Under the pieces are notes generated by a model. It saw only the letters and a program-made list of their open reading frames with translations. It ran no database searches and was not told where the DNA came from. The position numbers and the translations under genes are program-made. From a virus (taxonomy: Duplodnaviria > Heunggongvirae > Uroviricota > Caudoviricetes), in the IMG/VR virus record IMGVR_UViG_2551306491_000022: 9,690 nt of DNA; one strand, written 5' to 3'. Shown piece after piece: positions 3,089 to 3,511 of the stretch (its first letter is position 1; the number at the start of each line of letters is the position of its first letter).

Positions 3089-3511
3089 TTAAAACGGTAT
3101 GTTATCCCCGTACGGATCATCGTTACCCGCCTGTTGTTTTGCCCTGTTCAGTGCGTCAGTAGCCTGGCCCTGCTGGCCTTTTTTACCACCTGGTCGCGCC
3201 GTTCTGGCACTGATTACGCTGTCAGCGATAACCTGCCAGCCCTGCCGCGTTTCGCCGTTCTGGCCTGTCCACTGGCTCACCTGCATGTTACCCGCCACGC
3301 TCACCAGTTCGCCTTTGTGGTGTTTTGCCAGTGCGTCGGCCTGTCTGCCAAACGCCAGGACGGATAACCACATCGTCGCCGTTCCGTCATCGGCCTGGCT
3401 GCACGGCAGGGGGACAGCCATACTCGCCATCGCCATTTGTGTACCCTTGCTGGTGGTCTTTAACTGTGGGTCAGCCACCAGCCGCCCGTAAGCGGCTATC
3501 TGTGCTGTCAT
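3089..3511 (-). CDS. ssb: Single-stranded DNA-binding protein (SSB-like, OB-fold) with a variant acidic C-terminal tail
   Basis: 140-aa ORF. The N-terminal ~100 aa follow the SSB OB-fold pattern (GRLVADPQL...WLSVLAFGRQADALAKHHKGELVSVAGNMQVSQWTGQNGETRQGW), then a Gly/Gln-rich linker and a C-terminus DDPYGDNIPF resembling the canonical SSB ...DDDIPF tip. Its ATG overlaps the stop of the upstream gene (ATGA); Shine-Dalgarno GGAGAGG. Confidence 0.7.
   Translation of the reverse strand: MTAQIAAYGRLVADPQLKTTSKGTQMAMASMAVPLPCSQADDGTATMWLSVLAFGRQADALAKHHKGELVSVAGNMQVSQWTGQNGETRQGWQVIADSVISARTARPGGKKGQQGQATDALNRAKQQAGNDDPYGDNIPF

Follow-up and report, generated by a model that had tools for sequence, protein, structure and literature searches.

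A short single-stranded DNA-binding protein with a variant IPF tip in the replication module of a probable PICI-type phage satellite

The gene and its island

The stretch of DNA analysed here—the window, 9,690 nucleotides long—is a nearly complete island of about 10 kb. Along it follow, in this order, an integrase, an AlpA-like protein, a RepA helicase, iterons, a small helical protein, an SSB (single-stranded DNA-binding protein), a terminator and a protease/capsid fusion (Table 1). The SSB gene encodes a protein of 140 aa with the C-terminus ...AGNDDPYGDNIPF / ...QQAGNDDPYGDNIPF, i.e. the translated ORF does end with the tip DDPYGDNIPF that an earlier note on this DNA had read there.

Table 1. 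Positions of the features of the island, in window coordinates
Feature	Position	Strand	Basis and remarks
93-aa ORF			last gene in island order, after the protease/capsid fusion
ClpP-protease/major-capsid fusion	540-2429		NF045540 at 890 bits; preceded in order by a 75-aa ORF
Intrinsic-terminator-like hairpin GAAGCCGGA-GCAA-UCCGGCUUU and U-run	~3050-3075	minus	fold and sequence reading
SSB CDS	3089-3511	minus	ATG start; 140 codons and TAA stop at 3089-3091; ORF list, PF00436, TIGR00621, structure model
C-terminal tip DDPYGDNIPF of the SSB, residues 131-140	3092-3121	minus	ORF translation, conservation table, codon haplotypes
Linker ARPGGKKGQQGQATDALNRAKQQAGN of the SSB, residues 104-130	3122-3202	minus	pLDDT < 50, sequence reading
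OB-fold ssDNA-binding domain (predicted) of the SSB, residues 1-103	3203-3511	minus	AlphaFold2 pLDDT 83-91, Foldseek
83-aa helical protein, phrog_1231	3508-3759	minus	ATG at 3759 with its own GAGGTGG Shine-Dalgarno
Shine-Dalgarno GAGGTGG of the SSB gene	3516-3522	minus	4 nt 5' of the SSB ATG; read from sequence
Putative replication origin, AT-rich gap with iterons TGCCCACTTTT (AAAAGTGGGCA on the coding strand)	3771-3962		repeat analysis
RepA-family (AAA_25) helicase/initiator	3962-5371	minus	Pfam PF13481, E=3.7e-44; phrog_2850; RefSeq 'helicase RepA family protein'
Small ORFs and DUF4222 protein			between the AlpA-like gene and RepA in island order
AlpA-like HTH protein	7746-7952		weak AlpA/HTH_17 match and PHROG excisionase/regulator matches
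Integrase	8449-9690		PRK09692 at 556 bits

The ORF at 3089-3511 is a genuine gene and not a chance ORF. Its start codon and the TGA that ends the preceding ORF share bases (ATGA at 3508-3511, by sequence reading). Past its stop, at 14 nt, comes the terminator-like hairpin, which has a GC-rich stem of 9 bp; the entire 66-nt segment folds with z = -1.8. A pattern-based terminator scanner did not list this hairpin 3' of ssb, and we call it from the fold and from reading the sequence. Shine-Dalgarno, ATGA overlap and hairpin together make the surrounding signals consistent with an expressed gene. RepA, the iterons and the small ORF lie upstream; ssb is therefore the last gene of the replication operon, which the hairpin closes. 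Two ORFs of the plus strand, at 3099-3491 and 2990-3367, overlap the SSB gene; as that gene is rich in G+C, we take both to be its shadow ORFs.

The gene immediately upstream and ssb form a translationally coupled two-gene cassette, and the 83-aa ORF precedes the SSB in 75 of 80 IMG/VR loci. In a longer, GTG-started form of this ORF, residues 45-127 match phrog_1231 (E=1.8e-52). This 127-aa form (3508-3891) was rejected: it would cross the iterons, and PHROG, RefSeq and the gene's own Shine-Dalgarno favour the ATG at 3759. No Pfam, NCBIfam or PADLOC match was found for the 83-aa protein; its AlphaFold2 model is helical (pLDDT 69), and Foldseek returned no fold match in the PDB.

Between this cassette and the replicase gene is a gap of about 190-200 bp with 36-42% GC, in which the iteron TGCCCACTTTT occurs six times in direct and at least once in inverted orientation. 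Allowing up to one mismatch, seven of the eight matches to CCCACTTTT in the whole window fall within 3773-3962. Immediately 3' of the gene for the RepA/AAA_25 helicase, this cluster is in our reading the putative origin of the island.

PICI-type satellites are described as combining an integrase, an AlpA-type regulator, a primase-replicase and a capsid-related gene (PMC10085698). In the window the ClpP-protease/capsid fusion is the sole structural gene; genes for terminase, portal, tail or lysis were not found there, nor any terminase, portal or tail gene in the flanks of a syntenic island (L001). In Escherichia coli O22:H8 strain 154 the syntenic island adjoins tRNA-Pro, between yejM and yejO. 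Homology and architecture thus give good support to a PICI-type phage satellite as the carrier, and the SSB can indeed be called satellite-encoded, as proposed earlier: the island has the integrase, the AlpA-like regulator, the replicase, iterons and one capsid gene, and a homologue of the SSB occurs in the satellite EcCIEDL933. We rejected an identity as cf-PICI, the window having no TerL, TerS, portal or head-tail connectors, all of which are present in two other loci of the analysis (L002 and L005). EcCIEDL933 is itself the cf-PICI prototype, an element characterised by experiment, whose replication upon induction by a helper has been shown (bioRxiv 10.1101/2022.09.08.507074). Helper-dependent induction, replication and packaging are established only for that related element.

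A bacterial-type SSB of a distinct short lineage

Profile searches bear out the earlier assignment of the protein as an SSB. Pfam PF00436 (SSB) matches residues 5-99 with E=4.1e-16 and 59.4 bits, against a gathering cut-off of 26 bits; NCBIfam TIGR00621 'ssb' gives 61.3 bits against a cut-off of 53.95, and PHROG 44 (SSB) gives E=5.7e-40. The enterobacterial SSB model PRK09010 of NCBIfam scores 25.7 bits only, against a cut-off of 260. Among solved structures the sequence matches 33 SSB chains, first those of Thermus (2e-10) and Thermotoga (1.8e-9), with E. coli SSB (EcSSB) at 1e-5 to 4e-5. RefSeq already annotates the product of a 100%-identical gene copy (WP_000126638.1) as 'single-stranded DNA-binding protein'.

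The AlphaFold2 model, built on 27 family members, places six strands (residues 2-11, 16-19, 25-36, 44-54, 69-82 and 88-101) and one helix (55-62) in the OB domain, while residues 104-140 are disordered (pLDDT < 50) with only a weak helix at 117-128. Compared with the PDB by Foldseek, this model finds bacterial SSBs (S. aureus, B. subtilis, E. coli-type) as all its top matches, with probability 1.0; more than 50 SSB chains reach this probability, at target-normalised TM-scores of 0.63-0.77. By its profile scores, its single N-terminal OB fold, its disordered linker and its acidic IPF tip, the protein is a bacterial-type SSB.

In EcSSB, W40, W54, F60 and W88 are DNA-contact or stacking residues and H55 is a residue of the tetramer interface. 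Three of these four aromatic contacts are kept in the satellite protein, whose W48, F54 and W81 align with W54, F60 and W88; the equivalent of W40 is not kept, and a Leu takes the place of H55. Since the equivalents of both W40 and H55 are absent, the binding mode and the oligomeric state could differ from those of EcSSB.

EcSSB (178 aa, tip PMDFDDDIPF) and the satellite SSB belong to the same Pfam/TIGR family and have in common the OB fold and the disordered C-terminal region. Their tips are also alike in the aromatic residue at -7 (counted from the C-terminal F as -1), the Asp at -5 and the I-P-F-COOH end. The alignment with the host chromosomal SSB, which the earlier note had proposed, nevertheless yields an identity of 26% only, with a tip that departs from DFDDDIPF in having G instead of D at -6 and N instead of D at -4. 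The linkers differ as well: that of EcSSB is about 56 aa long, rich in Gly, Gln and Pro, and contains PxxP, whereas that of the satellite SSB is 27 aa long and basic (five basic residues and one acidic) without any PxxP motif. Across the family this linker is assembled from indel modules that are gained or lost. The last ten residues have a net charge of -3, versus -4 in EcSSB. When an SSB tip binds a partner, the Pro-Phe-COO- of the I-P-F end enters a hydrophobic pocket and Asp residues touch its basic rim (PMC3632105). With a less acidic tip and Gly for Asp at -6, the affinity of the satellite SSB for some host partners may be lower.

The SSB of EcCIEDL933 (WP_000126692.1) is of the same family, with a protein identity of 71% by tblastn and 73% by alignment, and a DNA identity of 77%. 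It too stands after a replicase, iterons and the same small ORF, and its tip, DDPYGDGIPF, has G at -4 where that of the window has N; the indel module of the linker is also different. The two elements are otherwise distinct. EcCIEDL933 has a DUF927 primase where the window's island has the RepA/AAA_25 helicase, and for morphogenesis it carries capsid, protease, portal, connectors, HNH, TerS and TerL, against the single ClpP-protease/capsid fusion of the window.

Extra SSB copies on a mobile element are also known from conjugative plasmids (the ssb of the IncF leading region and its relatives). These plasmid SSBs have long linkers and are close to EcSSB (73-91% over the OB domain for the plasmid-type matches), whereas the SSB of the window belongs to a different lineage of short SSBs. 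In four conjugative or large plasmids the tips are ...EDYGFSDDIPF, ...AYDFDDDIPF, ...MDFEDDIPF and ...PPMDDDAPF. Among viral SSBs of IMG/VR that are close to that of E. coli, 63 of 80 end in DFDDDIPF, and a few in DFEDDIPF or DFDDEIPF. Thus the comparison with ordinary plasmid and prophage SSBs, by which the earlier note meant to judge the tail, gives a divided answer: the satellite tail is not identical to theirs, but a non-canonical tip is no peculiarity of this protein. Such tips are common among mobile-element SSBs, and the satellite tip retains every strongly conserved position.

A tip may of course serve a partner of its own. The SSB of phage HK620 ends in NDYPPF, and this tip is required to stimulate the cognate Sak4 annealase (PMC5928155). 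Like the satellite SSB it is encoded by a mobile element, is distant from the host SSB and has a non-canonical acidic/aromatic tip. This precedent lends some weight to the idea that the satellite tail, too, has become tuned to a private partner, recruited in preference to those of the host; this could be the replication protein encoded by the island, the 83-aa product of the co-transcribed gene or a protein of the helper phage. That the phage SSBs near the E. coli protein retain the canonical tip, so that the satellite family stands apart, goes in the same direction. However, the recombinase served by the HK620 tip is encoded beside it, and the tail of the window retains the canonical I-P-F; neither Sak4 nor Erf, RecT or a similar gene was found in the window by Pfam and PHROG.

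Variation of the tip and of the neighbouring replicase

The variation of the tip was tabulated over the 120 closest clusters at 90% identity, of which the 115 with an F-terminal tip were counted. Asp is present at -10 and -9, and Pro at -8, in 104 of the 115 each. Position -7 is always aromatic (Y in 98, F in 11, W in 6), and -5 is Asp without exception. The end is nearly as fixed, with I at -3 in 110, P at -2 in 112 and F at -1 in all. At -6, G prevails (97, versus 9 E and 5 S), and only -4 is truly mixed: N in 58, D in 23, G in 21, E in 11 and S in 2. The motif of the close family is therefore DDP[YFW]-G-D-x-IPF, and the canonical-like form GDDIPF is itself present in the family.

The codons tell the same. 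The last ten codons occur as 15 nucleotide haplotypes. Synonymous changes among these touch each of the ten (D, D, P, Y, G, D, N, I, P, F), while amino-acid replacements are confined to -4, -6 and, once, -9. The switch between AAC and GAC (N/D) at -4 was seen on tail haplotypes that are otherwise identical. Synonymous changes all along the tip with replacements limited to these positions indicate purifying selection on a working tip. The tip had been called altered, and so it is in the literal sense, differing from DDDIPF by N for D at -4 and by G for D at -6; the suggestion of a special adaptation does not stand, since -4 varies freely. Judged from the natural sequences, -4 is the least constrained position of the tip and its Asn a tolerated polymorphism, with no special adaptation.

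More distant relatives help to tell which departure belongs to the family. A HMMER search of the full library gave 7447 relatives; among the best 150 representatives at 50% identity, 62 have an F-terminal tip, and these share the motif [F/Y](-7)-[D/N](-6)-D(-5)-x(-4)-[I/L]-P-F. Here again x is variable (E in 18, D in 13, P in 11, A in 9, G in 3, and others). At -6, by contrast, 52 of these 62 distant relatives have D or N, as compared with G in 97 of the 115 close clusters. The Gly at -6 is thus the truly family-specific departure of the tip, and the short basic linker is likewise a family trait. This specificity of Gly can be counted in favour of a private partner. On the other hand, the residue that had been singled out earlier, at -4, is the least constrained one, and the constrained residues—the aromatic at -7, the D at -5 and IPF—are precisely those of the host-type motif.

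The earlier note had further supposed that the modified tail might favour the element's own Rep. We sorted 80 IMG/VR loci by the genes adjoining the SSB, which in these loci is 98-100% identical to that of the window and nearly always has the identical tail (96 loci were considered overall). A D5_N/DUF5906 primase-helicase lies beside it in 44 of the 80 loci, with iterons CTGTTCACC (8-9 copies) or CTGTCTACC. A RepA/AAA_25 helicase, with five copies of AAAAGTGGG, is found in 19, and a DUF927 primase, with TAACCCGCA (6-11 copies) or GTTGTCCCA, in 13; in the four remaining loci no replicase was seen and iterons are not applicable. The iterons sit between the replicase and the SSB cassette, and each type of replicase has its own. 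Window-type iterons are present in every one of the 21 loci with a RepA-type replicase and in none with D5_N; three of the 12 DUF927 loci listed show two chance matches each to the window-type iteron. The morphogenesis module of the 80 loci varies as well (ClpP-capsid fusion in 22, HK97 capsid and TerL in 3, none seen in 55).

A co-variation of tail and replicase is rejected by these data, one and the same tail occurring with three types of replicase and iteron over the 96 loci. Replicase and origin co-vary as cognate pairs and the SSB does not, so that a co-adaptation of tail and Rep is rejected; the supposition that the tail favours its own Rep falls with it. In the same direction, the alleles GDDIPF (P0076) and GDNIPF (P0062) both adjoin D5_N/DUF5906 in cf-PICIs. 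The comparison shows the SSB to be a generic module that satellites exchange irrespective of their replicase-origin pairs, in most cases (75 of the 80 loci) along with the small ORF.

As regards a private partner, a single tail found with three unrelated replicases and different origins rules out specificity for the replicase. The small ORF remains as a candidate, since with the SSB it forms a conserved coupled cassette; adjacency of the genes is however the sole support for this partnership, the 83-aa protein having no recognisable fold or family. Altogether we consider it unlikely that the tail is tuned to a partner of this kind.

Distribution and proposed role

Of 5426 complete E. coli genomes, 1821, or about one third, carry the SSB gene family, and in 1084 genomes a place covers at least 80% of the gene. 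In IMG/VR, 424 stretches match, most of them on contigs of 8-13 kb, the size of satellites. Among 50,697 phage records, at the opposite end, no close homologue of the SSB was found; the best has 31% identity, and the reading as an ordinary prophage SSB was dropped for this reason. This lack of close homologues in phage records suggests a family specific to satellites and islands.

Could the gene be the decaying, non-functional remnant of a prophage SSB, its odd tail being due to drift? One copy would fit: that of strain 154 has a premature stop (nonsense) at codon 17, which indicates that the gene is dispensable at least in the integrated state. But in the window, as in nearly all the 96 loci, the reading frame is uninterrupted, most codons of the tail vary only synonymously, and the cassette structure and the Shine-Dalgarno are conserved; nor would a presence in 1821 of the 5426 genomes be expected of a remnant. 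The pattern of purifying selection excludes a general decay, and we regard this explanation as extremely improbable for the gene of the window.

Another possibility is that the SSB acts in interference or counter-defence: it could compete or co-assemble with the SSB of the host or the helper, shield the island's ssDNA from nucleases recruited by SSB, or act as a decoy for defences that sense SSB. The short basic linker and the less acidic tip, both unlike those of the host SSB, could be understood in this way, as could the restriction of the family to satellites and islands just described; besides, like accessory genes, the module travels from one type of satellite to another uncoupled from the replication proteins. 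Nevertheless, neither the SSB nor six small ORFs of the island match a defence model of PADLOC, and the gene is placed within the replication operon, next to the origin, and outside the slots that PICIs use for accessory or defence genes. The cf-PICI prototype, where a homologue is also encoded, is stated to affect its helper only negligibly (PMC10085698). We hold this role to be quite improbable.

We therefore favour a simpler reading, to which we give a probability of roughly 0.7: the OB-fold SSB serves the replication module of a PICI-type satellite as an accessory component, generic and not tuned to one replicase. Transcription of the operon (DUF4222 protein, RepA-type helicase/initiator, small helical protein and SSB) would follow induction and stop at the hairpin past ssb. 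The initiator would melt the iteron origin at 3771-3962, and the SSB would coat the single strands so exposed, giving the fast-replicating island an SSB supply of its own. Its tip, conserved and amphipathic ([Y/F/W]-G-D-x-I-P-F-COOH), could dock on SSB partners of the host such as Pol III chi, DnaG and PriA, in those pockets that take up ...DFDDDIPF. Family, fold, position in the operon, conservation and independence from the type of replicase and origin are direct results of the comparisons; the binding of ssDNA, the oligomeric state, the use of host partners and the timing of expression are what we infer for the satellite SSB. The host has an essential SSB of its own, and a need for a second one beside it is presumed here.

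A bolder idea is that the small helical protein and the short-linker SSB make up a portable cassette specific to enterobacterial satellites, whose weakened acidic tip (Gly at -6, free -4) and basic linker bias the recruitment of host or helper partners. We think this improbable too. If true, contacts with the replisome might for example be kept and nuclease or helicase partners avoided, or partners might be drawn off by titration at the expense of the helper phage; in that case the tail would not be a neutral variant but a means of adjusting the competition between satellite, helper and host.

Taken alone the finding matters little: RefSeq annotates the protein as an SSB already, and the tail is no outlier among natural forms of the docking motif. 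It is an ordinary, uncharacterised member of a known SSB family. We found no described PICI SSB in the literature, and the papers examined on PICI and cf-PICI satellites, including PMC10085698 and 10.1101/2022.09.08.507074, make no mention of one. E. coli PICI and cf-PICI satellites hold a dedicated SSB cassette that goes unmentioned in the satellite literature examined. The natural variation of its tip is also comparable to a mutational scan, in which -4 and -6 are free and -7, -5 and -3 to -1 are fixed, and could guide work on the specificity of SSB for its partners or on inhibitors of that interface.

Few plasmids are carriers of the family, with relatives 60-71% identical, and a scan of one genome per species gave a single locus, in E. 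albertii. The 83-aa protein has 169 homologues, whose source names are only Escherichia, Shigella and Citrobacter.

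Architecture of the island and the sister element in a prophage

The only structural gene of the island is the protease/capsid fusion (Table), and no terminase or portal gene was found in the island within the window. This architecture, the fusion alone without terminase or portal, differs from that of classical PICIs as well as from that of cf-PICIs; it was seen again in IMG/VR contigs, beside two different replicase types. A sister island in E. coli O45:H2 FWSEC0003 carries an SSB gene 100% identical to that of the window together with a different integrase, and its insertion point lies inside the large-terminase gene of a prophage which encodes its own ClpP-protease/capsid fusion. 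This prophage is a possible helper of the sister island; the satellite has therefore interrupted a packaging gene of its possible helper and resides there.

Features of the island and of the prophage that hosts the sister island
Feature	Location	Strand	Remarks
ClpP-like prohead protease/major capsid fusion, 629 aa	window 540-2429	minus	NF045540, 890 bits
Helical protein, 83 aa, phrog_1231	window 3508-3759	minus	translationally coupled to SSB
Iteron cluster and putative origin	window 3771-3962		repeats of TGCCCACTTTT
Mechanical ORF, 496 aa	window 6301-7791	minus	versus plus-strand genes at 6467-7624
Prophage large-terminase (gpA) gene, split by the sister island	L003 (FWSEC0003 locus) 1858-2862 and 12876-14006		NZ_CP031916.1

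The putative origin and a possible regulatory region

An AT-rich gap, bounded by the repA stop on one side and by the small phrog_1231 ORF on the other, contains six direct copies of the iteron and at least one inverted copy; the cluster is a putative origin. At the same spot, related islands have their own iteron for each replicase type: AAAAGTGGG for one, CTGTTCACC or CTGTCTACC for another, and TAACCCGCA or GTTGTCCCA for the third. The phrog_1231 protein is present in 75 of the 80 related loci and the source names of its homologues are limited to Escherichia, Shigella and Citrobacter; family, defence and fold searches gave no match for it.

The 496-aa ORF is probably spurious: in its place, RefSeq annotates several short plus-strand genes (YlcI/YnfO family and hypothetical proteins) in the syntenic island, corresponding to window 6467-7624. 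These genes would form a divergent regulatory region opposite the AlpA-like gene.

Variation of the SSB gene

The syntenic island of E. coli O22:H8 strain 154 carries an SSB gene (L001 15088-15510) in which codon 17 is the stop TAA instead of TTA, and a 115-aa remnant is the sole RefSeq annotation there, so that loss of the gene is possible in some lineages.

Among 80 viral SSBs close to that of E. coli (L097-L176), ten, including those of L097, L099 and L103, lack the DDDIPF end and carry instead an extended, non-acidic C-terminus, ...TLPFPRH[A/T]I[HY][AV][ILV].
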